Assembly (NCBI GenBank): GCA_020402865.1 | Contig: JADBYT010000019.1 | Location: 68,622-132,621 of the forward strand | Direction of reading: 5' to 3' | Length of the DNA: 64,000 nucleotides | From: Bacteroidota bacterium | Lineage (GTDB): Bacteria > Bacteroidota > Bacteroidia > Palsa-965 | Shown: one piece after another, positions 4,009 through 19,100 of the stretch | Numbering within the stretch: position 1 is the first letter of the stretch | Layout: the number at the start of each line of letters is the position of its first letter | The notes under the pieces: generated by a model | The model's database searches: none | What the model was told of the DNA's origin: nothing | What the model saw: the letters and a program-made list of their open reading frames with translations, nothing else | Made by a program: the position numbers and the translations under genes

Positions 4009-7000
4009 TTGCATCCTCAGAATCCTATCTTTGTGTTGGCTCACAACACATTGATAACACGATTTATGATGCAAATAGGAATAAAGCGACTCCTGCTTTT
4101 CCTCTTACCCGCCTTTTTCCTGCTTCCGCAGGCAAAAGCTTCGCACCTGATGGGTGGCGAAATTACGTGGGAATGTCTGGGTACCGGGCAGTTTGTGTTT
4201 CAGATGAAACTTTACCGTGATTGCAACGGTGTTACGGCTCCGCCGGCGGCTGCGCTCGATGTATTTAACAATCCGGCCATTACGGTAATCAACCTCACAC
4301 TGGTTTCGCAGCAGGATATTTCGCCCGTGTGCAACGGCGCGGGGCCTACCATTACCTGTGCTGCAGCTTCTGCGTCAACCACACCCATTCCGGGCGCGGT
4401 GGAAGAATACATTTATCAGTCGGCACCCATTTTTATGAATGGTACACCGCCCCCGCAGGGCTGGGTGTTTACTTACGACGACTGCTGCCGCAACAATGCC
4501 ATTGTGAATTTGCAGAATCCCGGCGGTGCGGGGTTCACGCTGCGCGCCATTATGTATGCCTACAATGCGCAGAACATGAATCCGTGCTACGATAACTCAC
4601 CGAAATTTCTCGAAAGTCCCAAGTCAATTATCTGCACCGGTTATCCGTTTACCTACAACCACAATGCAGTGGATGTGGAGCTCGACTCACTTTCCTACGC
4701 CTGGGCCGAGCCGCTTGATCAGTTTACCACGTTTCCGCCCGCCGCCTACAACCCCGGTGTGGATCCGCCGTTTATTCCGTTTGTGGCCGGTTTCAGTATG
4801 ACCAGCCCGCTTCCCGGCACCAACCTCGATCCGAACAACGTGCCCGCCACACTCGATCCGTTTACCGGCGAAGTTTCTTACACTTCCTTTACACAAGGCG
4901 CGTTTGTTACCTGCATTAAAGTGCAGGCGTGGAAATGCGGACAGCTTGTAGCCGAAATTTTCCGCGAAATTCAGGTGGTGCTTTTACCCTGCGGCACCAA
5001 TACGCCGCCCGATGTGAATGCACCGTTTCAGGATCCCGTTACCGGCCTCTTTACCTTGTATGCCGATACGGTAACGGCCGGGCAGCTTGTTACCTTTACA
5101 CTCACCGGAAGCGATTTTGAGTTTTTACCCAACGGCGCACCGCAAACGGTAACCATGACCGCCACCGGCCTGCAGTTTGGCACCGGCTTTACCAATGCGG
5201 CTTCCGGCTGTTTAAATCCGCCCTGCGCCACGCTTAATCCGCCTCCGCCCGTGTCGGGGGCATTGGGTACGCAAACCACCTTTACCTGGCAAACCGACTG
5301 CAACCACGTATCCTACACCAACCAGTGTTTTGTGCAGTCGAACACCTACAATTTTGTAATCCGCACGGCCGATGATTTTTGTCCGGCACCGGCCCAAAAC
5401 ATTGCCACCATTTCCATTACCGTGCTCAACTTGCCGGTGGTGCAATCGCCGGAGGTGCATTGCCTGGCGGTGGATGCTGCCGGCGGGGTTACGCTTACGT
5501 GGGAGCAGCCGCTTGATACGGCCAACACCTTCAACAGCTACCACATTTACAGCTCCGCCAATGCCAGCGGGCCGTTTACGGTTATTGATTCTATTTTCAA
5601 TTACAACCAGACCAGCTACACCCACGCCGGTGCCAACGCCAACAGTGCGCCGGTGTATTACTACGTGCAAACCCGTTCGGGATGCGGTGGTGCGGTTATG
5701 CTGCCTCCGCAGGATACACTCAGCTCCATTTACCTGCAGGTGGTAAACAACAATAACCTTACCGCTACACTCAACTGGAACAACATCAGCACACCGCCCC
5801 CGGTTTCGCAGTTTGGCTGGTTCCGCATTTACAAGGAATATCCCGCCGGTGTGTGGACACTTATTGATTCCACCCAGTCGCTCAACTACACCGACAGTAT
5901 TCCGTATTGCAACGCCAACGTAAATTACCGCATCGAAATAGGCGATTCGCTGGGCTGTGTGTCTGTATCCAATGTGGACGGCGTGCTGGCGCAGGATGCC
6001 ATTGTGCCTGCCGTGCCCGTGCTCGACAGCGTGTCGGTAAATGCGGCCGGTAATGCCGTGCTGGGCTGGCAGCCTTCCACCTCAACCGACGTAACGGCCT
6101 ACATCATTTTCCAGTTCATCAACAACATCTGGACGGCCATTGATACCGTGTATGGCTACAACAACACGTCATACACCAACACCATTTCCAACGCCGACCA
6201 GCAAAGCGAACTCTACGCCGTGGCGGCGGTTGACAGCTGCAGCAACGTAACCGTGTTCAGCAGTCAGCACAACACGCTGTTCCTTACCGGCATACTTGAT
6301 GTGTGCAACGTGGCCAGTGTGCTTTCGTGGAATGCCTACAACAACATGACCGGCGGTGTGGCCGCGTATGAAATCTGGTTTACCGAAAACGGCGGGCCGC
6401 TTCAGCAGGCCGGCACAGTGGCCGGAAACATCACCACCTTTACACACAGCGGCCTCACCCAGTTTTCGACCTACTGCTATTATGTGCAGGCGGTTGATGC
6501 CACGGGGTTAATTACGTCCACCTCGCAGGAGTTTTGTCTTTTTGCCAACGTGCCCCAGCTGCCGGCGTTTGAATACCTGCGTGTGGCTACCGTAAATGCG
6601 CCGAACACCGTTGAAGTGCGCGCCTTTGTGGATGTAACGGCCGACGTGATCCGCTATGATGTGTATCGCTCAGAAACACAAACCGGCCCGTGGGCGCCGC
6701 TTGGCAACGTACCTTTTTCGGCCACCACACCGCAAATCAGCTTTACCGACAACACCGCCGAAACCAGTGTGAAAAGCTACTGGTACAAAATGGTGGCGGT
6801 TGACAGTTGCGGCAACGATGCGTACACGTCAAACCTTGGCCGCACCATTCTGCTTCAGGCCACCGCCAACAACGAAATTACCAATACCCTCATCTGGAAC
6901 CCGTATGAAGCCTGGGCTTCGCCGGTGCTGGGCTACAACGTTTACCGCGCAGTTGACGGTGTGCTTGCGCCCGTGCCTGTAACCTTTGTGCCGCATACCG

Positions 7001-7431
7001 GTACAATGACCTACACCTACGTAGATCAGGTTGAAACCTACATTCCGCAGCGCGGACGTTTCACCTACCTGATTGAAGCCGTGGAAACACCTGTAAATCC
7101 CTTCGGCTACACCGATACCAGTTACTCCAACCTGGCCGAAGTGGTGCAAAAGCCGCTGGTGTATGTGCCCAACGCCTTTACACCCAACGGCAACGGCCTG
7201 AACGACTTGTTTATGCCCTCGCTCGGTTTTGTGGATGTGGAGGAATACGACTTTACGGTGTTTAACCGCTGGGGCGAAATTATTTACCGCACCAATGTGA
7301 AAACCGAAGGCTGGGACGGACGTTACCTCGGCGATAAATGCCAGCCGGGCGTGTATGTGTGGACGGTAACCTTCCGCGCCGCTTCCGGCGATTTTGTGGA
7401 CCAGAAAGGTACAGTTACGTTAATTCGTTAA
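4009..7431 (+). CDS. large cell-surface protein with FN3/Ig-like repeats and a T9SS type B C-terminal sorting domain
   Basis: 1140-aa ORF. The probable start is the MMQIGIKRLLLFLLPAFFLLPQAKA signal peptide at ~4066. The C-terminus (VPNAFTPNGNGLNDLF...FNRWGEIIY...GWDGRY...GVYVWTV) matches the gliding-motility-associated (type B) CTD. Confidence 0.85.
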   Translation: MHPQNPIFVLAHNTLITRFMMQIGIKRLLLFLLPAFFLLPQAKASHLMGGEITWECLGTGQFVFQMKLYRDCNGVTAPPAAALDVFNNPAITVINLTLVSQQDISPVCNGAGPTITCAAASASTTPIPGAVEEYIYQSAPIFMNGTPPPQGWVFTYDDCCRNNAIVNLQNPGGAGFTLRAIMYAYNAQNMNPCYDNSPKFLESPKSIICTGYPFTYNHNAVDVELDSLSYAWAEPLDQFTTFPPAAYNPGVDPPFIPFVAGFSMTSPLPGTNLDPNNVPATLDPFTGEVSYTSFTQGAFVTCIKVQAWKCGQLVAEIFREIQVVLLPCGTNTPPDVNAPFQDPVTGLFTLYADTVTAGQLVTFTLTGSDFEFLPNGAPQTVTMTATGLQFGTGFTNAASGCLNPPCATLNPPPPVSGALGTQTTFTWQTDCNHVSYTNQCFVQSNTYNFVIRTADDFCPAPAQNIATISITVLNLPVVQSPEVHCLAVDAAGGVTLTWEQPLDTANTFNSYHIYSSANASGPFTVIDSIFNYNQTSYTHAGANANSAPVYYYVQTRSGCGGAVMLPPQDTLSSIYLQVVNNNNLTATLNWNNISTPPPVSQFGWFRIYKEYPAGVWTLIDSTQSLNYTDSIPYCNANVNYRIEIGDSLGCVSVSNVDGVLAQDAIVPAVPVLDSVSVNAAGNAVLGWQPSTSTDVTAYIIFQFINNIWTAIDTVYGYNNTSYTNTISNADQQSELYAVAAVDSCSNVTVFSSQHNTLFLTGILDVCNVASVLSWNAYNNMTGGVAAYEIWFTENGGPLQQAGTVAGNITTFTHSGLTQFSTYCYYVQAVDATGLITSTSQEFCLFANVPQLPAFEYLRVATVNAPNTVEVRAFVDVTADVIRYDVYRSETQTGPWAPLGNVPFSATTPQISFTDNTAETSVKSYWYKMVAVDSCGNDAYTSNLGRTILLQATANNEITNTLIWNPYEAWASPVLGYNVYRAVDGVLAPVPVTFVPHTGTMTYTYVDQVETYIPQRGRFTYLIEAVETPVNPFGYTDTSYSNLAEVVQKPLVYVPNAFTPNGNGLNDLFMPSLGFVDVEEYDFTVFNRWGEIIYRTNVKTEGWDGRYLGDKCQPGVYVWTVTFRAASGDFVDQKGTVTLIR

Positions 7432-7440
7432 CTTGAGCCG

Positions 7441-7938
7441 ATGGAAACCACCGCCGGTACAAAAGAAGCGCAGTTAGCCACCATTACCCGTTTTTTGCAC
7501 GAAATAGGCCTGGAAACCCGCCAAGGCGAGGTGCCCGAAAACACGTTTTTGTCTGCTATTTTGATCAAAAACGGCGTTATTGTCTATAATCCTGAACAAT
7601 TACTGTATCCCGGCGACCTTTTGCACGAGGCCGGGCACGTGGCTGTAAGTTTGCCGCATGAGCGGGCCGGGCTGCACAACAATGTGCTGGAACTTGACCA
7701 GAACAAGCAGGGCGAGGAAATGGCCGTGCTGCTGTGGTCGTGGCTGGCAGCAAGGCATATTGGTATTCCCGACGAGGTGTTGTTTCACGATACCGGCTAC
7801 AAGGGCGAGGCCGCCTGGCTGCGCGAACAGTTTCAGAGCGGGCACTACCTCGGTGCGCCGCTGCTGCAGTGGATGGGAATAATTGAACCGGCAGAGCCGG
7901 GCAAAATGCCCCGTGTAAAAAGCTGGCTGCGCAGCTGA
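7441..7938 (+). CDS. hypothetical protein
   Basis: 165-aa ORF starting 9 nt after the type-B cargo gene. No signal peptide or known motif recognised. Confidence 0.55.
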   Translation: METTAGTKEAQLATITRFLHEIGLETRQGEVPENTFLSAILIKNGVIVYNPEQLLYPGDLLHEAGHVAVSLPHERAGLHNNVLELDQNKQGEEMAVLLWSWLAARHIGIPDEVLFHDTGYKGEAAWLREQFQSGHYLGAPLLQWMGIIEPAEPGKMPRVKSWLRS

Positions 7939-7957
7939 GCCGGTTGTGAAGAAGTAA

Positions 7958-9508
<1,551 letters not shown>

Positions 9509-9529
9509 CGCGGAATGTTCAATTTTGAA

Positions 9530-9850
9530 TGCTAAATGTATAATGCAGCCGGACTTTGTCCGGCTGTTTTTTTTGGGGTGTGTGTAATAATGCAGCCGGC
9601 TGTTTTTTTTGGGGGGAATGTTTGGAGTGGTTTTTTGTGTGTTGTAATGCAGCCGGGTGTTTTTTTTGGGGTTAGGCTGTTTTTTTTGGGGGGGAAGTGT
9701 TTGGAGTGGTTTTGTGGTGTTGTAATGCAATTGGGTGTTTTTTGGGGTTCGGCTGTTTTTGGGGTTGGAGTGTTTGGTGTGGTTTTGTGGTGTAGTAATT
9801 CAGCCGGGTGTTTTTTTGGGGGAGTGATGTAATTCTTTAAGTGGGGTGTT
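9530..9850. repeat. degenerate tandem array (4-5 units, ~58-76 bp) of terminator-like GC-stem/T-run units
   Basis: Reiterated units gtaatgcagccgg(c/g)tgttttttttgggg...gtttggagtggttttgtgtgtt at about 9540, 9588, 9646, 9722 and 9797. ORFs 9536..9832(+) and 9532..9900(-) are artefacts of the repeat. Confidence 0.7.
9546..9574 (+). terminator. Rho-independent terminator of guaB
   Basis: Perfect hairpin cagccgga-ctttg-tccggctg followed by T8, 38 nt after the guaB stop. Confidence 0.7.
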
Positions 9851-10048
9851 TGGGGACGCGTATTTTGGGTAGTTGTCACCGGGATATAGGTTTTACGCAT
9901 AATGCGTATATTAAATAGTTGATAATGTAATGTGTTTATAAATAATGAGTTAATGTATTTTGTAGTTAGTTGTGTTTTTGCGGGGTAATTGCGTATATTT
10001 AGGAGTTGCCTGCAACCCTAACAGATCCTAATAGCAAAGACAGAATTT

Positions 10049-11284
10049 ATGTTTGGATATAGAAATACAATTAAGGCTTTCTATGAAATAGACAGCTACA
10101 CTTACAGACAAGAAAAATCAAATAGCATTGTAAGTGAGATAACAAATAAAGGCAAAGAATACATTTTGGGGGTTGATGAAAATGAATTTATAGAGTATTT
10201 AATTGAAAAATATAGTATTGAACCATTAACGGTTGACAGGGAAAATCCAAGTATCAACGAACCAACTGTTTCAAAAGAATGGGTAGAAGACAGAATGTGG
10301 AGAGAAAAATATCAAACTGATGTTTATACTTTTACAATTAGTTACAAATTTTCAGGTTCGTCTGAATTATTTAAGGTTAGACCTGACACTTGGACAATGA
10401 CTACAACTGAAATTTCAATAAATGAACAAAACTCAACAGTATCGTTTAGTTTTAAACTTTATAGAAAAGACCCAGGAGAATTTAATAATGCTAAAAGAGA
10501 TTTTGAAAACAGAGCCTTTGCAAATCTTCAAAATGTAAATAACTTAGTTAGTAGTTGGAATAATTCAATTAAAGGACTTGCAACTTCAACATTTCAAGAA
10601 CACAAAAGAAAATTTCAGCAAGAGAATGATTTTTTTGCTGCAATCAATGTAAAAGTAAATACAAATACTTCATCAGTATTTACTGCACCAACAATAAAGA
10701 AAAAAGTTATACCACAACCAACAGTAAGTCCAAAAAAAGAATTTTCATCAGAGCCAATGATGAGCAAAGAAATGTATGATGACATCTTAAAAGTGATCTA
10801 CGATTCTGGAAAGAATATGGAGAAGAAACCAACTTTATATCAAAACAAAGACGAAGAGGGTTTAAGAGACCAATTTTTGTTCGTATTAGAAACAAGATAT
10901 GATGGAACTACTGCAAGTGGTGAAACATTTAATAGAAGTGGTAAAACAGATATACTTTTGAAATACGCTAATGATGGAAGTAATTTATTTGTAGCAGAAT
11001 GTAAGTTTTGGCACGGAATAAACGAATTTCAAAAAGCAATTTCACAACTATTTGACAGATACTTAACTTGGAGAGACTCAAAAACAGCCTTGATAATGTT
11101 TGTGAAAAATAAAGACTTTTCAAATGTAATTGAGACAGTAAAAAAAGAAATTAACGAACATCCTTACTTTTCTAAATTAGTCGGACATCGTGGTGAGACT
11201 TCTTTTAGTTACTTGTTTCATTTACCACAAGACAATCAAAAACCAGTACAATTAGAAATAATGCTTTTTCATTATGACAAATAA
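10049..11284 (+). CDS. hypothetical protein with an unknown N-terminal domain and a C-terminal PD-(D/E)xK-like nuclease motif; candidate defence effector
   Basis: 411-aa ORF in the AT-rich island. Its C-terminal region (FVLETR ... GKTDILLKYANDGSNLFVAECKFWHG) matches the E...D...ExK spacing of the restriction-endonuclease-like fold. Confidence 0.7.
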   Translation: MFGYRNTIKAFYEIDSYTYRQEKSNSIVSEITNKGKEYILGVDENEFIEYLIEKYSIEPLTVDRENPSINEPTVSKEWVEDRMWREKYQTDVYTFTISYKFSGSSELFKVRPDTWTMTTTEISINEQNSTVSFSFKLYRKDPGEFNNAKRDFENRAFANLQNVNNLVSSWNNSIKGLATSTFQEHKRKFQQENDFFAAINVKVNTNTSSVFTAPTIKKKVIPQPTVSPKKEFSSEPMMSKEMYDDILKVIYDSGKNMEKKPTLYQNKDEEGLRDQFLFVLETRYDGTTASGETFNRSGKTDILLKYANDGSNLFVAECKFWHGINEFQKAISQLFDRYLTWRDSKTALIMFVKNKDFSNVIETVKKEINEHPYFSKLVGHRGETSFSYLFHLPQDNQKPVQLEIMLFHYDK

Positions 11285-11488
11285 ATAGGGCAGCAGGCAA
11301 CATCGGTTTGGCAATATGGCGGCTGAAGTGCTTCTATGAAACATTTGTGCAAGGTTCAACAGCATTAATTCTATTGAACTTTATTGCTAAAAATCCGCCA
11401 CATCGCCAAGCCGTTTCCCGTTAGCAACAATTATATGACAAACCATGATATCAGTAAAATTGGTTTAAGCCCAAAAAAATGCAACAAA

Positions 11489-14158
11489 ATGAAAGAGGAA
11501 ATATATATTTCATATGCATGGATTAAATCCCCTACAGGCAATAAGGGGCACTCAACAATTGTTAACTCTATTGAGAAAAAATTGAAAGGTCATTTCAGCG
11601 TTAAAATTGATAAAAAAGATTTAAAGTACAAGGGAAACATAAAGGAATTTGAACAACGACTGGGACGAAATGGAAAAATTGTTATTGTCATTAGTGATAA
11701 GTTTCTTAAGTCAAAACATTGCATGCACGAAGTGCAATGTATAGTTGAGAAAGGCAATGTATATGAACGGATATTTCCAGTTGTGTTGGATGATGCTGAC
11801 ATTTATAACTCAAAAGGGATTCTTAAGTACGCTAAGTATTGGGAGAAGGAAAAGGAAAAATTAGAAAAGGAGTTGAAAAAAACTAAATCGCAGGCCAATC
11901 TTATTCCAGTACAAAACGACATCAATTTATTTTCTAAGTACCGTGAAATTATTGCTGGTTTTATTGCCATACTCAACAATATGAATACGCTAACTCCAGA
12001 AATTCATGAAGGGGCAAAATTTGAACAATTAATTGAAGCACTGTATGGAAAAAATCCACGACCTGACCATAAGCAGGAAAAGGATTACGCCAAGCGAATC
12101 TCAGAGACCAAAAAACTATTTGATAGTGCAATAAAGATTATAGAAAAGGAAATCAAAGAGAGAAAAATTAAGGCTGAGGAAATTCTTGGAAAAATAAGGC
12201 ACTTTCAAAATCAATGCACCCAACAAACATTTCAAATTGCTGTAATGGCAATTTTAAAATCGGGGAAATCCACCTTTTTAAATTCGTTACTCGGCAATGA
12301 GTTTTTGCCCGTTTCGAATGTTGCGGCAACTTCTGTCCCCGTTAGGATTAATCATTCAAGACATAAAGACGGGTATCTTACTTTTGGGAAAAGCAAAATT
12401 GATGGTGTAGAAAAGATTAGGAAGCAAATCGAATTGACCAATGAAGAAAAGAGAGATAAGGGAATGCAAGAGGTTCAATTTAATTTGTTTGCTTCTTTCA
12501 GGGCACTTGAGGATAAGGAAATGACTGATATTAAGTTTGAAATATTAGACACACCTGGCTTTGGTGAAGCACTTACTGAAATTACAATTGGAAAAACAAT
12601 TGACGAATCCAATTTGGAGCTTATTGATAAAATCAGCGCAATAATCTATTTGCTGGATTACACCAAATTGAAAACAACAGACGAGGATAAGGTGTTTGCA
12701 AAGTTAACTGAGATGCGAAGTGACATTCTGGATAAAATATCAGACAGGTTGTTTTTTATAATTAACAAAATTGATGAGGAAAACAGGAATAGTTTGCCAC
12801 CAGATAAAGTAGTTGATTATGTATTTGACATCGTTAAAACGAAAATGCCGAATGTTTTAAAGCAGCACATTTTTACAATATCCGCTAACCGTGCATTATT
12901 ATCTAGATTAATTCTTTTTGAGAATGCGACCAGTGAAGCGAAAAAGGACTTTGGTAGAATGGCCTTTGGATTTAAAGCAAACCAAAAGGATGAATCGGAA
13001 TACAAAGAAGTAGCAAGAGAAATATTAGCCGCCAGTAACATTCTTGAAGTTGAAAGCAGAATTCTGAATCACATTTTCGATAATCGAAGTAGGATATTTG
13101 TCGAAGGTCTGCAGGACAGCTTGAAACATTTAATGAAGGAATTCAAGAATAAATTTATTATCACTGCTGAAGGAGTTCTTAGCAGAACAATTGAAGAAAT
13201 TACTGACCTTGAATCAAAAATTGAGGCAGCAAAAAAAAAACAACAAAGTATCCAGGACGAAGCGGATAAATTTGAAACGGAAATCAAGGAATGGAATGAA
13301 ATAGAATTTCGAAACTTTGAAAAAAGCATCACAGATCAAATTGACTCAGCTTTCAATATTGAAAAGGTTGAAGAAAAGCAATCGTTTTGGGGTAGAATGA
13401 TGCCAAATTGGGTAAAGAGAGTTGGAAATAAATTGCGCGAGGTACAAGACTCCGTTGATTCCAGTTCGAAATATGATGTTGAGGAATCAATTCGTGCGCT
13501 TAACAAGGAAATTAATGAGGAGTTAATTAATTCATTCGGAATATTCAGACGGGAATTAGAGAATAAATTAGCCTCAAAGCAGAAAGCACTTTTTGAATCG
13601 CTGAAGCAAACGATAAATACATTAGCAAAAGAGTTCGAGAGCACATTAAAAAAAGGACTTAAAGTGGAATTTGAACAAACAGAGGTTCGCTTAGACGAGC
13701 CAGATTTTGACAGAACCCTAATAAAGGCAGATGAGCTCATTGATAGATTTGTACAAAGCGACTGGAAAGGAGTTCGTGTTGCAAAAAAAGAAAAGGTTTA
13801 CAACGAAAGAAAGAATTGTTATCTGGGGGGATACGACACTTTTACTACTTATGAAACTCAATACTTTGAGGAGAATAGAATAAGCAAGACCTCCTTAGAA
13901 TTGTTTTGGAAAAAAGTAATTGATGACAGGCATCAAAATGCGAAGGGAGTGACGAATAAGTTACTTGAAAACAGTATAAAAGCTCAGATTAAGAACGCAA
14001 GGAAAAGTTTCGACACATACGTGGGAGATTACCTTTTAACTATCCAAGAACAAAAGGCTCGATTGACGAATAGCGACAAATCGGAAATTGCAAATCAGAT
14101 AGCACACTTAAGACAATTAAATGAGACGGTATCGAGTATTATTCAAGATTTGAAATAG
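11489..14158 (+). CDS. TIR domain + dynamin-like GTPase + coiled-coil fusion protein; candidate defence sensor/effector
   Basis: The ORF runs 11384..14158, and the likely ATG is 11489 (MKEEIYISYAW). The N-terminal segment has a TIR signature (IYISYAW...VIVISDKFLKSKHCMHEV, containing the conserved Glu). A P-loop GTPase follows with G1 AILKSGKSTFLNSLLG, G3 ILDTPGFGE and G4 INKIDEE, a dynamin_N-like pattern. The remainder is a long heptad-rich, K/E-rich tail. Confidence 0.8.
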   Translation: MKEEIYISYAWIKSPTGNKGHSTIVNSIEKKLKGHFSVKIDKKDLKYKGNIKEFEQRLGRNGKIVIVISDKFLKSKHCMHEVQCIVEKGNVYERIFPVVLDDADIYNSKGILKYAKYWEKEKEKLEKELKKTKSQANLIPVQNDINLFSKYREIIAGFIAILNNMNTLTPEIHEGAKFEQLIEALYGKNPRPDHKQEKDYAKRISETKKLFDSAIKIIEKEIKERKIKAEEILGKIRHFQNQCTQQTFQIAVMAILKSGKSTFLNSLLGNEFLPVSNVAATSVPVRINHSRHKDGYLTFGKSKIDGVEKIRKQIELTNEEKRDKGMQEVQFNLFASFRALEDKEMTDIKFEILDTPGFGEALTEITIGKTIDESNLELIDKISAIIYLLDYTKLKTTDEDKVFAKLTEMRSDILDKISDRLFFIINKIDEENRNSLPPDKVVDYVFDIVKTKMPNVLKQHIFTISANRALLSRLILFENATSEAKKDFGRMAFGFKANQKDESEYKEVAREILAASNILEVESRILNHIFDNRSRIFVEGLQDSLKHLMKEFKNKFIITAEGVLSRTIEEITDLESKIEAAKKKQQSIQDEADKFETEIKEWNEIEFRNFEKSITDQIDSAFNIEKVEEKQSFWGRMMPNWVKRVGNKLREVQDSVDSSSKYDVEESIRALNKEINEELINSFGIFRRELENKLASKQKALFESLKQTINTLAKEFESTLKKGLKVEFEQTEVRLDEPDFDRTLIKADELIDRFVQSDWKGVRVAKKEKVYNERKNCYLGGYDTFTTYETQYFEENRISKTSLELFWKKVIDDRHQNAKGVTNKLLENSIKAQIKNARKSFDTYVGDYLLTIQEQKARLTNSDKSEIANQIAHLRQLNETVSSIIQDLK

Positions 14159-14388
14159 CTATTCAGTAAAATAGTGAAGTTTAGTAAACTTTGGGAAAAT
14201 TATAAAACAACTATTGCTAACAGGCGTTTGGCTCAATGGTGGGTACAGTGGTTAAATGAAGCTTTTGCTTCTTTCTAAGTTTCTGCTGCTTTGACTGTGA
14301 AGTGCTTCGAAATACTGCACGAACGCCAAACGGCAAAACCTTACTACTAATTCTAAATCATATCACATCGACAACAAATAGAAAGAAA

Positions 14389-15021
14389 ATGATCGAACCT
14401 GAAATACAATATAAAGTACCAAATTACTGCCCGACTTGTAATTCGATAGTTGAGACTGGAATTCTTTTCAGTTATGCTTTGAATATTATATACACAGACG
14501 AATTAGAAAACCAAGGGACAGCCGTAATATTAGGAAAGTGCTTGAATTGCAACAGTCCGTTTTTATCACAAGAAGATTTTCAAAATATTGAAGAGCATTC
14601 TTGGGTAAATGACAAATTTCAACTTTACCCATTGACAGACAACTTCGCATTAAAAAACGCACCTGATATTGTTATTAATCCATACAAAGAAGCCCAGAAA
14701 TGTTTTAGGGCTCAAGCATATGAAGCTTGTGTAATAATGTGCCGAAAAGGAATTGAAGCGATATGCACTGACAAAGGCGAGACAAAGGGCAACCTCGCAG
14801 ACAAATTAAAAAAACTAAAAGACAACCATATTTTAGAAGAAACATTTTATAACTGGTCAAACGAATTGCGACTTATTGGAAATGACGGAGCCCACTCACA
14901 CGACAAAATAATTAACAAGCAAGATGCGAGAGACGCCATTGACTTTTTTGACGCTTTGATAACATATTTATATCATTTGGTTGATCAATACAAAAAATTA
15001 AAAACTCGTAGAACTAAGTAA
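14389..15021 (+). CDS. Zn-ribbon + DUF4145-like domain protein
   Basis: The ORF runs 14302..15021, and the likely start is MIEPEIQY at 14389. It has a CxxC...CxNC zinc ribbon (CPTCNS...CLNCNS). The C-terminal block AQAYEACVIMCRKGIEAIC...LRLIGNDGAHSHD...ARDAIDFFDALITYLY resembles DUF4145, a domain found on type I restriction endonuclease (HsdR) C-termini and abortive-infection/defence proteins. Confidence 0.65.
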   Translation: MIEPEIQYKVPNYCPTCNSIVETGILFSYALNIIYTDELENQGTAVILGKCLNCNSPFLSQEDFQNIEEHSWVNDKFQLYPLTDNFALKNAPDIVINPYKEAQKCFRAQAYEACVIMCRKGIEAICTDKGETKGNLADKLKKLKDNHILEETFYNWSNELRLIGNDGAHSHDKIINKQDARDAIDFFDALITYLYHLVDQYKKLKTRRTK

Positions 15022-15062
15022 TGACAAGTGGAGTAAAGAATATTATTTATTTCAGTGTCTAT

Positions 15063-15869
15063 CTATAGAGTATCAAATTTATTAGCATAGTAATGAGCTT
15101 TTTCACGGTCTTTAGGTTCGCTATTCCCATAGAAGTTACTATGAGAAAATAGTGTTTGTGTAAGGTAATTTTTAAGCCAAAGATATTTTGCATAGTTTTG
15201 AGTTCCACTGTATAATTCATTTTTAATATTAGTATATATATATTCTAAATCATCGATATTTTTAAGGGCTATTCGTTCTGCAAATGAAATAAAAATTGCA
15301 TCATTATTTATGATCGTAAAGTCGGTGGGATATTGATATATTAAACGATTTGGTCTATCAACTGCGCCGGGGTAAATGCTATCATAGTTATATTGTAATA
15401 TAAAATATTCTTTGGTTTGGTGGGAAGGATTACTATCATATGATGCAATGATTCTTGGGTCAATAATTACTCTAGGATATTTTTCCTGTGATTCTAAAAT
15501 ATAAGCATCACTAAGTCCATTTCCTACAACAATATTTAGTTCAGTATCAAAATGAATGTCACCTAAAGTTACTGCTCCTCTAATCCAAATATTTTCCCTT
15601 GCACAGTCGCATTGTATTGTTTGAACTGCAGTTAATAGCTCTCTTAATCCTTCTATGCTTAACTCACTGGCAAGAATAACTGAATCACTCACTAATTGAC
15701 CGCGAACATTTTCTTTACTCGATTTTACTTTTTTTAGAGTTTTAGTAATTACTTCGAAATACTTATCAAACCTAAGGTCTGTATCTTTTTTGCGTAACAT
15801 TTCTTTAAATCCTAAGACATCTAAAAATGCAACATATTGCTTCTCTTTTAGATTTTTTGACATTGACAT
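15063..15869 (-). CDS. class III nucleotidyl cyclase-like (palm-domain) protein; possible signal-generating cyclase
   Basis: 268-aa ORF convergent with the DUF4145 gene. YVAFLDVLGFKEML (first metal Asp), QLVSDSVILASE (second Asp), IWIRGAVTLGDIHFD and VVGNGLSDAYILES resemble the conserved blocks of class III adenylyl/guanylyl (and Pycsar pyrimidine) cyclases. Confidence 0.6.
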   Translation of the reverse strand: MSMSKNLKEKQYVAFLDVLGFKEMLRKKDTDLRFDKYFEVITKTLKKVKSSKENVRGQLVSDSVILASELSIEGLRELLTAVQTIQCDCARENIWIRGAVTLGDIHFDTELNIVVGNGLSDAYILESQEKYPRVIIDPRIIASYDSNPSHQTKEYFILQYNYDSIYPGAVDRPNRLIYQYPTDFTIINNDAIFISFAERIALKNIDDLEYIYTNIKNELYSGTQNYAKYLWLKNYLTQTLFSHSNFYGNSEPKDREKAHYYANKFDTL

Positions 15870-16062
15870 TGTTTTCTGTTTTTGTATGATTGCGTCTTTC
15901 TGGTGTTTATTTATATATTGTAAATATATTAAGTGTTTTATTTAGATCAAGATTTGTGCTAATATTTATATTAAAGGAGTAATAAATTGTCATTTTTAGG
16001 CAGATCTCTTTCTGATCTAGCTTCATGGTGAATTTAATGTATATGACACTAACATACCCCCT

Positions 16063-16103
16063 CAAAAAAAACACCTGCCGGCATTGCTGCACAGCAGGTG
16101 TTT
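16063..16103 (-). terminator. intrinsic terminator of the 1530-aa cargo gene
   Basis: On the minus strand, hairpin aacacctgc...gcaggtgtt followed by T8 (plus strand: ctcaaaaaaaacacctgccggcattgctgcacagcaggtgtt), 20 nt past the stop. Confidence 0.55.
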
Positions 16104-16121
16104 ACTTCAACATTAATCAAT

Positions 16122-19100
16122 TTACTCGTGAATGAGTTTGGCGGAGTAGCTGAACCCGCTGCGGCGGTCTTCAATTTTAAGCAGATACACACCCGCTGCA
16201 CAGCCCGTAAGCTGCGTGTTTATTTGCATGCGGCCGGCATCGGTTTCGCGCATTTCCTGATGCACCACGCGGCCGGCAAGGTCAGTTACCGTAATAGAAA
16301 TGGTATTGCTTTGCGGCGATACGAAGTCGAAAATGAGTGTGCCGTTGGTGGGATTGGGATGCAGATTGTCCACAAACACGCTGCCGGGCTGGTAGTTGAT
16401 GAGCACCACCGGCGAGTAGGTGTAGGTGCCGTTAAAATCAACCTGCTTTAAGCGGTAGTAGTTTTCGCCCTGTTTCGGGAAAGCGTCAACCTGCACATAA
16501 TGCAGCGGCTGTGTGCTGTTTCCGGCCCCGTCAATGGTAGCAATAGGCTGGAAGAACTGCCCGTCGGTTGAGCGTTCGAGCACGAAGTAATCGTTGTTCT
16601 GCTCGGTGGCAGTAGTCCAGCGCAGCACGTTGTGCTCGTTTTCGCTGGTGCCGGTAAAGGAAATAAGTTCAACCGGCAGCGGCGTTTGCGACTGCGCCAC
16701 GGCAAATACCGAGAAGCCGTTTAAGCCCGTGCGGCTGGTTTGCGCAGCGGTGCTGGTGGCTACACACGTGCCCTGCAAACCCCAGGCGCTGGCTATGTTG
16801 GCGGCTTTCATTACCGTCCACCCCGAAGCGCCCGCCGTGTTGCTGTAACTGGTGCTGAACAGCGTGACATCATAATTGCCCGAAGTGGCATTGGCCGAGG
16901 CATTGATGGTCCAGTAACCGTTGTTGAGCGCCTGCAGCGCATTGTAGGTGGCGTTGGGGCATTCGCTGGCGGCAGGGCCGTTGGGCAACACCGCCCACGG
17001 ATCAAACCTTGCAATGAGCTGCGGAATGGTGGTGGTGGTGGTAAACGTAATTTGTGCGCGCTGGTAGCCCTGCAGCACCGTGCCCACGGGCAGGTTGTAA
17101 GCCACCGCCGCGCCCGAAAGCCAGCGGCGCAGGTTGCCGGCCACAAAACTGTTTGTATTGCCCGCCGTGCAGGCTGCCGAAGCGGTGTTGGTTACCTGCA
17201 CTTCGTTGGCGGCAGTAACAATGCGGCCGTTAGTAAGTGTAAGTGTGCCCGATGTGCCCAGCACCATATTGGTGGCCAGCGTTACACCCGTGCCGGTGTG
17301 GTTCATAAGCACATTGTTAAGCGTGAGTGTGCTTGTGCCTTGATTATACGTTTGCGCGGCGGTGCCGTTAAACTCAAGCGTGCCGGTGGTGCCGGTGTTG
17401 GTGTAGGTGCTGCTGCCGTTGCTGTTGGTGAAGTTGCCGGCTACCCGCACGTAGTTGCCCGTGGTGTTGAATACACTGGTGTTGTTGGTGGTGGTAAAAT
17501 TGCCGCCAATATCAATGGCTGCATTCAATATTACCTGTCCGCCGGTTTTGGTAATGGTGAGGTTGCCCACTTTATCGGCTCCCACAAACGAGCCGGTAAT
17601 GTTTTGCACCACCGAACCGTTGTTGAACACAATGGTAGAAAGCGGACTGCACACGAGTGAACCGAAGTTGGTAAAATCGCCGCAGATGTTGAGTGTGGCG
17701 CCGGCCTGCAGGGTAAGTGTGGCGCCGGGATTGATGGTGAGGTTTTTTACGTTGTATGTACCTGCGGTGAGAATGGGTTGTGTAACCGACGAGGGCGAAA
17801 TTACCGCATCAATGCCGCAGGTGGGCGAGTTGCAGCCGCCCCAGTTGCCGGTGGGCACCCACGCACTGTTGGTGCCGCCGGTCCACGTAACCGAGTTGCC
17901 CGCAGCGGTGTAGTTGATGGGCGATGTGGCCGAGAAGTTGAGCGTAAAGCCGGAGGTGGAGTTGGAGAAGTTACTTACGCAAAGCAAATACACATCGCCA
18001 TTGTTCACGGCCAGCTGCTGCTCGTAGGCAAAGTTGAAGCCGGGATAGGCTGCAGGTGCGGTATTGGTTACGGTGCTGTTGAGGCCGGTAACCCCCAATC
18101 CGCTGTAGTTGCAGCGTATGGGCACTGCACCGGCGGCAATACCGGCACAGTTGGTAGCGCCAGCGCCGGCAATTTTCCACACGGCAAAATCGTAGTCGGT
18201 GGCGGCGGTGCTGGGTGCGCCGGGCCAGTCGTTGGGCACAATGTCGAAGGTAAGTGTGCCGTTGGCATTAATCGGAATGGAATACCATGCCGAGCCGCGT
18301 TCGCCGGAGGCAAGGCAGATGGATGCGCCTGTGAAATCGCAGATATTGCCGTAGGCCTGATAACCGGGGTTACCAATGGCAATGGTGGCGTTGCACACGG
18401 GGTTGGGCGCCGAGCAATCCTGCCCCACGGCAGCCGGAAAACCTACTGCGCCGTTTACCGCCATAATATCAAACGTGCCGGTGAGCGAGTTGGCGCCGTC
18501 CACACGAATGAAGTAGGTGGCGCCTGCGGTTAAGCCGGTGGCGGTTATTTCGGAATTGCTGTACGACGAAGTACCGCACACAGGCGCATCGTCGTTGCAG
18601 GCCACCTGGGTAAGCGAGGCGCAGGTGCCGCTGTAAAGTGCAATCTGCGTATTGGTGAGCGAGCCGATGCCGGTGCGGATGCGCAGCTGCCCCGAAGCCG
18701 GACACACCACTGAATACCACACGGAGTTAATGGTGCCGGTGGTCCAGCAGCTGGCTGCGGCGGGTTCAGACACACTGCCGGAGCAGGTGTTGTCGCCACT
18801 CAGGTTTACGTTGAGCGGAAGCGATTGTGCGTTGCAGGGTAAGTCGTTGGCGGGGCCGCTGCCGTTGTTTACAATGTTTATATCGTAGGTGGCGGAGCTG
18901 GGCGATGCCCAGGTATCTACCACAATGTAATAGGTTCCGGCCGCAGGCACGGTAACGGAAGCGGAAAGCGGGTTGCTGCCGCCGGCCGAGCCTACGCAGG
19001 TGGTGCCCACGTTGCCCGGGCAGCCATTATACACCTGAAAACCGATGTTGGAGGTGCTGGCGTTGCTCAGGGTAATGCCTAAGCAGGCCGCACCGCTCAG

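Follow-up and report, generated by a model that had tools for sequence, protein, structure and literature searches.

Four open reading frames (ORFs) with domains familiar from anti-phage defence lie side by side in an AT-rich island between guaB and the gene for a type IX secretion system (T9SS) cargo protein in a Bacteroidota metagenome-assembled genome (MAG). Do they form one immune system, or are they several that share an address? The preliminary description of this locus, which is part of a 64-kb stretch of contig JADBYT010000019.1 (hereafter the window), favoured a single undescribed TIR/GTPase/nuclease/cyclase system, with two or three stacked small systems as a fallback. The fallback proved essentially correct, with four modules counted. 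We consider it likely that the island is an array of integron-type cassettes, resembling a cluster of attC sites lacking integron integrases (CALIN), and that its four anti-phage modules function independently, not as one system. The array would have entered where the terminators of guaB and the T9SS cargo gene converge.

That the island stands apart from its surroundings, as had been noted, is clear from its composition. GC content over 9831–16057 is 0.330 against 0.499 in the rest of the window, and the drop is sharp, with 500-nt windows at 0.29–0.36 over ~9750–16250 and at 0.50–0.61 to either side (values for single genes are given in Table 1). Horizontal acquisition and a defence role for the island, both proposed earlier, are well supported (for ORF4, see below). 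The absence of an integrase and of tRNA genes was also borne out: no tRNA was found across the 64-kb window, and no integrase, transposase or tyrosine recombinase among its scanned flanking and larger ORFs.

The genomic contexts of relatives speak most directly to the question of one system or several. In 111 loci fetched around relatives of the four genes (designated below by L-numbers), no relative of any island gene adjoins a relative of another, and guaB lies beside no ORF2 relative; the searches included tblastn of ORF1, ORF3, ORF4 and guaB against 95, then 100 loci, fetched around ORF2 and ORF4 relatives. All-against-all clustering of neighbouring ORFs gave no conserved partner for ORF4 (13 loci) or for the close clade of ORF2, a TIR-dynamin fusion, barring one sub-clade (L004, L049 and L050) whose common neighbours are a complete type I cyclic-oligonucleotide-based anti-phage signalling system (CBASS). 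The contexts of ORF2 homologues are all different, and comprise an Eco57I-type methyltransferase (MTase) with a PLD nuclease, IS1595 with helix-turn-helix genes, CBASS, and ubiquitin-like/ThiF genes. In a different Flavobacteriales MAG (L008), DNA identity of 95% to the window is confined to 11483–14079, together with a 28-nt patch at 11419–11446 that covers one of the recombination boxes described below, the R' box of the first element. Similarly, identity of 85.6% between L110 and the window is confined to 10005–11302, and the ORF1 orthologue there follows a SurA-like gene. With near-copies of ORF1 and ORF2 found elsewhere between unrelated flanks, and no co-occurrence, each gene therefore moves alone. 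Two apparent cases of ORF1/ORF2 co-occurrence (P0185 and P0003 each listed with a 14,587-bp contig, P0265 and P0008 each with an 11,434-bp contig) turned out to be coincidence. In L100, PDC-S54, the family of ORF1, is absent and the downstream 399-aa gene is unrelated.

The single integrated system first proposed, in which for example a cyclase signal would be read by the TIR-dynamin or the nuclease protein, draws on the placement of all four genes in a single AT-rich block with short gaps, on the defence-type domains found in each, and on ORF4 having no effector of its own. However, no pair co-occurs in the loci just described, ORF1 and ORF2 are separately bounded cassettes that stand alone in other genomes, and ORF1 and ORF3 come from families that count as single-gene systems. 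Moreover, Pfam and PADLOC recognised no cyclic-nucleotide sensor domain (CARF, SAVED, cyclic nucleotide monophosphate (cNMP)-binding or SLOG) in the island proteins. The context data have already largely refuted the integrated system, which we regard as highly improbable; a stack of independent modules is very likely, given those data and the cassette boundaries.

These boundaries lie at two 144-nt structured repeats (11289–11432 and 14209–14352), which with matching R'/R'' boxes delimit cassettes, contrary to the remark in the preliminary description that no obvious att repeat is present. Both belong with an element that precedes the CBASS operon of L004 (73% identical to element 2) and another that follows the ORF1 orthologue of L110, all four being related. 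All share a 5' end in AAC, an imperfect palindrome (G.TTTGGC ... GCCAA.C), a spacer of 5–6 nt and a 3' GTTAGCA-like box, a layout that, as read from the sequence, is the R''-L''...L'-R' of attC sites. A covariance model (R1) built from these four elements detected no further element in the window and six new copies in the other loci: three in L004, one in L008, one in L099 (234 nt beyond an ORF4 homologue) and a weak one in L001 (following a TIR-dynamin gene). Each of the six shares the orientation of the genes and is placed 3' of a gene. Among the ten elements, 95% of cells pair and compensatory changes occur in 8 of 16 pairs, values reached by none of 500 shuffles and set against 26–47% pairing in slid controls, although the ten-element alignment was fitted to R1 and these pairing statistics lean in its favour. 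At the AAC/GTT ends, A-T pairs are kept in all nine scored elements and the C-G pair in six; the L stems are 96–97% paired, and the AAC-to-GTT core measures 114–123 nt, mostly 120–121.

The elements also account for two corrected gene starts. The four ORFs stand where they had been placed, apart from the starts of ORF2 and ORF3. The former begins at ATG 11489 and not TTG 11384, because 20 of 20 homologues begin MKEE(V/I)(F/Y)ISYAW and the upstream extension falls in the non-coding attC-like element; the latter begins at ATG 14389 and not GTG 14302, because the homologue alignment places it there and the longer ORF runs into the non-coding structured element.

If the repeats are attC sites, the bases after the G|TT at the start of a cassette should be complementary to the R'' of its own attC. 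This rule was tested at six junctions (Table 1). Over the six bases beyond GTT/AAC, cognate boxes match at 6, 5, 6, 5, 0 and 4 of 6 positions, compared with a mean of 2.05/6 for 93 non-cognate R'/R'' pairs, only 3 of which reach at least 5. The homology breakpoints to L110 and L008 coincide with GTT boxes as well: homology to L110 starts exactly at 10005, and that to L008 begins at the GTTAGCAAC box, the R' box of element 1, at which the ORF2 cassette opens. Four adjoining defence-like genes need not form one system; here they are most likely separate cassettes with mapped recombination boxes.

Intergenic palindromic repeats of another kind, whether terminators or sequences resembling repetitive extragenic palindromes (REP) or miniature inverted-repeat transposable elements (MITE), might instead explain the 144-nt elements, the genes having arrived otherwise, for example through homologous recombination of flanks in a defence hotspot. 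The elements would also serve as terminators after each gene, no integrase was seen, the spacer geometry departs from that of textbook attC sites and integrons are rare in complete Bacteroidota genomes, all of which would suit such repeats. Complementarity between the start of a unit and the R'' of its own downstream element, however, is specific to circularisable integron cassettes, and holds in 4 of the 6 tests versus ~3% of controls; the breakpoints on GTT boxes, the conserved AAC/GTT ends and the uniform length and orientation likewise speak for attC. We judge the other repeats an unlikely explanation, and find integron-type cassette mobility fairly probable from the site architecture and the cassette rule.

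A related alternative concerns the last two genes only, and holds that ORF3 and ORF4 are a two-gene module, a RAZR-like RNase and a cyclase-like enzyme that travel and work together. The gap between them is 41 nt, no attC-like site follows ORF3, and the unit opened by the R' box of element 2 holds both. Against this, DUF4145 (the ORF3 domain) is a neighbour in none of the 13 ORF4-family loci, the ORF4 homologue in L099 has its own attC-like element downstream, and RAZR functions as a single protein. ORF3 and ORF4 are also convergent, and therefore not co-transcribed. A joint module is thus quite improbable, and we continue to treat the two genes as independent.

Several points weigh against reading the island as a cassette array of stand-alone defence modules. 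The R' box of element 2 is degenerate, with CTT in place of GTT, and no attC-like element was found after ORF3 or ORF4; by these two features the array is decayed at its far end, and ORF3 and ORF4 either share one unit or belong to that decayed end. The cognate test failed at one of the six junctions (L004 c to d, 0/6). The R''-L'' spacer of these elements is 1–2 nt, where textbook attC sites have ~5 nt. Neither the 64-kb window nor the examined loci yielded an integron integrase, and the array is therefore at most CALIN-like; only the site architecture suggests that it depends on an integrase. Contexts were sampled at two loci for ORF1 and at none for ORF3. In L004 the TIR-dynamin gene sits with a CBASS operon and two unknown genes in an 8.4-kb unit, so the ORF2 family is not always solitary. 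As for the modules themselves, ORF3 falls below the PADLOC PD-T7-4 model at E<=0.001. In ORF4, the positions of the transition-state Asn and Arg of canonical class-III cyclases read Ser and Ile on visual inspection, and a defence role is argued only from location, an effector partner being absent.

Table 1. Features of the island and its borders, and the R'/R'' junctions compared (coordinates are those of the window; for junctions, box starts)
Feature	Coordinates	Strand	GC	Description
guaB			0.554	Upstream flank
Left border	9545..9830	+		guaB intrinsic terminator: hairpin 9545–9567 and T8 GGGG
First R'-type box	10005..10013	+		GTTGCCTGC; start of ORF1 cassette; exact complement of R'' of element 1, GCAGGCAAC (11293–11301)
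ORF1	10049..11284	+	0.298	411 aa; PADLOC single-gene candidate PDC-S54
attC-like element 1	11289..11432	+		R'' GCAGGCAAC (11293), L'' CGGTTTGGC (11304), L' GCCAAGCCG (11405), R' GTTAGCAAC (11420)
ORF2	11489..14158	+	0.347	889 aa; TIR ~1–160, dynamin-like GTPase, predicted helical/coiled-coil C-terminal half
attC-like element 2	14209..14352	+		R'' TTGCTAAC (14214), L'' GGCGTTTGGC (14223), L' GCCAAACGGC (14325), R' CTTACTAC (14340)
ORF3	14389..15021	+	0.344	210 aa; Cys4 zinc ribbon (C14, C17, C51, C54) and DUF4145 (divergent HEPN), R161-x7-H169
ORF4	15063..15869	-	0.304	268 aa; class-III cyclase-homology domain ~1–145 and C-terminal helical domain
Right border	16057..16100	-		T9SS cargo gene terminator, hairpin CACCTGC at 16072 / GCAGGTG at 16094
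T9SS cargo gene			0.564	Downstream flank
Junction, window ORF1	10005; 11293			R' GTTGCCTGC; reverse complement of R'' GCAGGCAAC is GTTGCCTGC; 9/9
Junction, window ORF2	11420; 14213			R' GTTAGCAAC; reverse complement of R'' ATTGCTAAC is GTTAGCAAT; 8/9
Junction, L004 a to b				R' GTTATAGCC; reverse complement of R'' GGCTATAAC is GTTATAGCC; 9/9
Junction, L004 b to c				R' GTTAGGGGT; reverse complement of own R'' is GTTAGGGGGT; one indel
Junction, L004 c to d				R' GTTAGCGGC; reverse complement of own R'' is GTTTTATCGGC; fails
Junction, L110				R' GTTGCCTGC; reverse complement of own R'' is GTTATCTGC; 7/9

ORF2 combines a TIR domain, a dynamin-like GTPase and a coiled coil, as first described: TIR_2 and Dynamin_N score 37.7 and 57.2 bits against Pfam gathering cut-offs of 28 and 27, and are followed by a long C-terminal region predicted to be helical or coiled-coil and stalk-like. 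In an alignment of 21 full-length relatives (44–67% identity), the TIR motif SxHCMxE is invariant (S75, H77, C78, M79 and E81), as are the GTPase motifs G1 KSGKST (257–262), G3 DxxG (354–357; DTPG in ORF2 itself) and G4 NKxD (426–429; NKID in ORF2). From the SxWCxxE motif, E81 is presumably the catalytic glutamate. The best PDB sequence match, cyanobacterial BDLP 2j68, is weak (E=0.0013). It is a rare family: 5.8 billion proteins yielded ~22 clusters, mostly from Bacteroidota and one from a Nitrosopumilaceae MAG. This last protein (P0020), full-length and 45% identical, is annotated from an archaeon, which suggests either cross-domain transfer or a binning artefact.

Distant relatives of ORF2 retain the GTPase and stalk and swap the effector, with EAD11 at the N-terminus in P0023 and P0041 and TIR at the C-terminus in P0035. 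Relatives of the GTPase that have no TIR (27–35% identity) head a conserved three-gene operon in L010, L011, L014, L015, L016 and L051, in which the dynamin-like GTPase is followed by a ~300-aa coiled-coil protein and a patatin-like phospholipase (L010 9986–13858); its hosts are Bacteroidota, Binatia, Chloroflexota and delta-proteobacterial MAGs. No dedicated PADLOC system model is matched by any of the three proteins, the GTPase matching nothing and the patatin weakly matching generic phospholipase effector models, and ORF2 at E<=1 gave nothing beyond weak coiled-coil noise. We found no paper on the dynamin-patatin operon or on TIR-dynamin fusions, and dynamin goes unmentioned in an eLife survey of NTPase-centred conflict systems. 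Conflict systems typically exchange effectors while keeping the NTPase chassis, and we therefore argue that in ORF2 the dynamin part serves as sensor or switch and the TIR domain as effector. The dynamin-like GTPase and its helical stalk would act as sensor and assembly switch, such that GTP-dependent self-assembly, at a membrane or on a phage structure, would gather the N-terminal TIR domains, turn on NAD+ cleavage and lead to abortive infection. Taking domain logic, invariant residues, effector swapping and defence-island neighbours together, such an assembly-gated TIR NADase is plausible, if not quite probable.

Known systems share parts of this design. ORF2 resembles Eleos (LeoA/LeoBC), B. 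subtilis DynA and BDLP in its dynamin-family GTPase, whose G motifs are intact, and in its long predicted helical region. It differs from them in matching no Eleos/LeoA PADLOC model (E<=1), in the absence of a LeoBC-type partner, in its fused TIR effector, and in the genes that accompany its closest relatives lacking a TIR, namely those for a coiled-coil protein and a patatin phospholipase. TIR immune proteins (Thoeris ThsB, TIR-SAVED, TIR-STING, PycTIR and TIR-NLR/Avs-like proteins) have the SxxCxxE glutamate too, and the logic proposed for ORF2 is theirs, in which an assembly-prone sensor brings TIRs together, but the partner domain of ORF2 is a dynamin-like GTPase and not SAVED, STING, cNMP-binding or STAND. 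A ThsA-type gene (SIR2-SLOG or Macro) as in Thoeris is absent from the island and from the examined ORF2-family loci, and a signalling role for ORF2 would therefore have no reader. The fusion of TIR to an effector-swapping GTPase chassis offers a clean model for dynamin-type assembly gating an immune effector.

Two further loci of this family deserve mention. The L008 orthologue (10001–12729), 94% identical to ORF2, is broken into ORFs of 235 and 616 aa and diverges from the window 80 nt ahead of the stop (window 14079); it may be a copy in decay, or the assembly may be in error. The L004 unit (5711–14030), bounded by the perfectly complementary boxes GTTATAGCC and GGCTATAAC, contains a 90-aa gene, the type I CBASS (CD-NTase and a four-transmembrane protein, 4TM), the TIR-dynamin gene and a further two that lack annotation (502 and 533 aa). 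The 502-aa gene overlaps the TIR-dynamin stop by 4 nt, and the gene order is repeated in L049 and L050. The unit is either an unusually large cassette or several fused through internal site loss.

For ORF3, the zinc ribbon and DUF4145-like domain named earlier both hold up: DUF4145 reaches 68.4 bits (cut-off 23.1), and within the family the four cysteines are invariant and R161 and H169 nearly so. The PADLOC PD-T7-4 model is matched by 51 of the 64 family members, and a profile of the 64 matches PDB 9y9c, a 24-chain DUF4145 protein, across both domains (E=4.4e-8). The zinc-finger domain of RAZR (formerly PD-T7-4) binds ring-shaped phage proteins, for example portals and Gp77, and its 24-mer switches on the DUF4145/HEPN RNase through R146 and H154 (PMC13017515). 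ORF3 has the same size and architecture (Cys4 ribbon, linker, DUF4145), with R161 and H169 spaced like R146 and H154, 8 residues apart. It differs in lying under the hidden Markov model threshold, in having, by itself, no significant pairwise similarity to the solved chain (9y9c), and in its Bacteroidota host. On its sequence features, we place ORF3 in the RAZR superfamily as a divergent representative. Homology suggests that its zinc ribbon would bind ring-shaped phage proteins such as portals, and that a curved oligomer would then activate the DUF4145/HEPN RNase, cutting RNA and stopping translation; that ORF3 works as a ring-activated RNase of this type seems to us somewhat probable. ORF3 has three distant temperate-phage matches only in the phage collections, and none in the viral-contig scan.

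ORF1 matches the PADLOC PDC-S54 model (PDLC05036) end to end, with no sequence-level difference (E=2.6e-111; residues 8–409 on profile positions 5–406 of 410). It has no Pfam or NCBIfam family, and neither its family profile nor a direct sequence search found a match in the PDB. The family is very large and tightly conserved (>3,000 matches at 60–70% identity across phyla), with the catalytic residues D301, E317 and K319 (GKTDI...VAECKFW) invariant. The earlier reading as a PD-(D/E)xK nuclease with an unassigned N-terminal domain is upheld by these residues and by an AlphaFold model (predicted local distance difference test, pLDDT, 76.9). In the model, a confident N-terminal domain (1–198) of unassigned fold is joined by a disordered linker to an alpha/beta C-terminal domain that carries the D...(D/E)xK motif on a restriction-endonuclease-like alpha/beta core. 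We take PDC-S54 to be a computational candidate only, as its PADLOC name implies, and found no paper on it; its nuclease fold and two-domain layout appear undescribed so far. The N-terminal domain presumably senses infection and controls the nuclease, and from the predicted fold and catalytic motif we give such a sensor-gated nuclease an even chance.

ORF4 presents a different problem, being a confident class-III cyclase fold in a family without annotation or partner. It has no Pfam (E<=1, including Guanylate_cyc), NCBIfam or PADLOC (E<=1) family, matches IM638_13595, a hypothetical protein from a Bacteroidetes MAG, at 100% identity, which makes the host a member of the Bacteroidota, and has ~110 homologues of ~260 aa each. 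A direct sequence search of the PDB found nothing similar to ORF4. The class-III cyclase-like assignment made at the outset is confirmed by the AlphaFold model (pLDDT 91.7; predicted template modelling score, pTM, 0.91), which shows the cyclase-homology-domain fold, with Pycsar cyclases among its structural neighbours; the BFVD fold search returned generic cyclase-domain matches only. The C-terminal 120 residues form an additional helical domain. D17 (FLDVLGF) and D62 (SDS) are invariant in the family, and align, in an hhalign comparison short of significance (probability 0.18), with the FTD and GD metal motifs of a genuine cyclase. ORF4 probably acts alone as a class-III cyclase-like enzyme, with both putative metal-binding Asp residues retained, and carries out nucleotidyl transfer or cyclisation. 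Compared with PycC of Pycsar and other class-III cyclases, it matches no Pycsar PADLOC model or Guanylate_cyc and has the extra helical domain; no effector adjoins it, no cNMP-binding domain occurs in the island and no neighbour is conserved in its 13 loci.

Does such an enzyme belong to defence? Its relatives lie in small, variable inserts whose neighbours are HEPN, AAA_23/MTase or toxin-antitoxin genes, and on fold and location a nucleotide cyclase or transferase in defence is a tentative proposal, one we hold with some doubt. It is a real possibility that ORF4 is instead a signalling or metabolic enzyme that travels on a cassette, or that it derives from phage and serves counter-defence: the gene has neither an annotated family nor a partner, non-defence functions are common among integron cassettes, ORF4 matches phrog_23933, and the viral-contig scans found 8 distant relatives on viral or prophage contigs (and 1 relative of ORF1). 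The variable inserts and the Pycsar cyclases among its structural neighbours point away from such roles, as do the zero matches to ORF4 in 50,697 isolated phage genomes. Neighbours of the family include a DUF4062 fragment in L099 (2637–2804) and a DUF5343 and HEPN_Swt1 pair in L096 (8009–9231); these small variable inserts may be further defence cassettes.

Integron arrays and CALINs offer the closest parallel to the island as a whole. Here, too, cassettes are short, promoter-proximal and mostly of one gene, a ~120-nt site with AAC/GTT ends follows the gene, the cassette start is complementary to its own R'', and the cargo consists of small defence genes that include the PD-T7-4 family. The differences are the absence of an integrase from the window, the Bacteroidota MAG host, the short R''-L'' spacing, and the presence of two intact sites with distal decay. 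Integron cassettes are reservoirs of small defence systems, among which PD-T7-4 is one of the commonest, and sedentary chromosomal integrons have been described as defence 'biobanks' (bioRxiv 10.1101/2024.07.02.601686). Bacteroidota are listed among integron hosts (PMC8618304), and integrons are nearly absent from their complete genomes (IntegronFinder 2.0). Defence cassettes in Bacteroidota would extend the 'biobank' idea past Vibrio and Pseudomonadota, and the attC-like covariance model can be used to mine further cassettes.

The preliminary description had put the whole island forward as a candidate undescribed system. ORF1 is already a catalogued candidate (PDC-S54) and ORF3 belongs to a characterised family (RAZR/PD-T7-4), so what is undescribed here is limited to the TIR-dynamin single-gene candidate, the orphan cyclase-like family and the integron-type defence cassettes in a Bacteroidota MAG. 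A broader reading that links these three is possible, and we put it forward with reserve. A homogeneous family of ~120-nt attC sites would mark cassette arrays in Flavobacteriales-like Bacteroidota that store streamlined anti-phage genes; the TIR-dynamin protein would be a single-protein abortive-infection system, in which GTP-driven, dynamin-style polymerisation assembles TIRs into an active NADase; and ORF4 would be a further stand-alone immune enzyme.

The surroundings of the array add some minor observations. Upstream, guaB encodes IMP dehydrogenase (TIGR01302, E=4.5e-188), and downstream lies a T9SS type-A sorted protein; farther flanks encode M16 peptidases, phosphoenolpyruvate carboxykinase (PEPCK), SprB/PKD/CHU_C proteins, glycosyltransferases and LptF/G. 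An Rfam scan of 9000–16500 gave zero matches, and a sigma-70 promoter scan showed no excess over shuffles, the sigma-70 consensus being ill-suited to Bacteroidota. In L110, a perfect 24-bp inverted repeat (CCTCGGTCTGTGGCACACAGAACG ... CGTTCTGTGTGCCACAGACCGAGG) at 8760–8835, between the SurA-like gene and the ORF1-type cassette, is unmatched by the attC-like model. Just 5' of the first R' box of the window, at 9894–10004, are a palindrome (TACGCATAATGCGTA at 9894) and direct repeats (TGCGTATATT at 9903 and 9990) that recall the direct repeats to which integrase binds in attI, but no integrase gene lies next to them. Finally, the guaB terminator is followed by ~5 degenerate, G/T-rich half-copies of itself with the motif TAATGCAGCCGGxTGTTTTTTTTGGGG, which Tandem Repeats Finder reports as 3 copies of period 73 with 83% match. 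The strand is nearly pure G+T over 9541–9830 (GC skew +0.62), and all six occurrences of at least six T followed by at least three G in the 64 kb fall within this left-border stretch. On the minus strand, the tail of the right-border terminator, GGTGTTTTTTTTGAGGGGG (16057–16076), is an inverted near-copy of the left-border motif (17 nt, one mismatch). The copies at the two borders could be scars of repeated insertion at a terminator, or a low-complexity coincidence.

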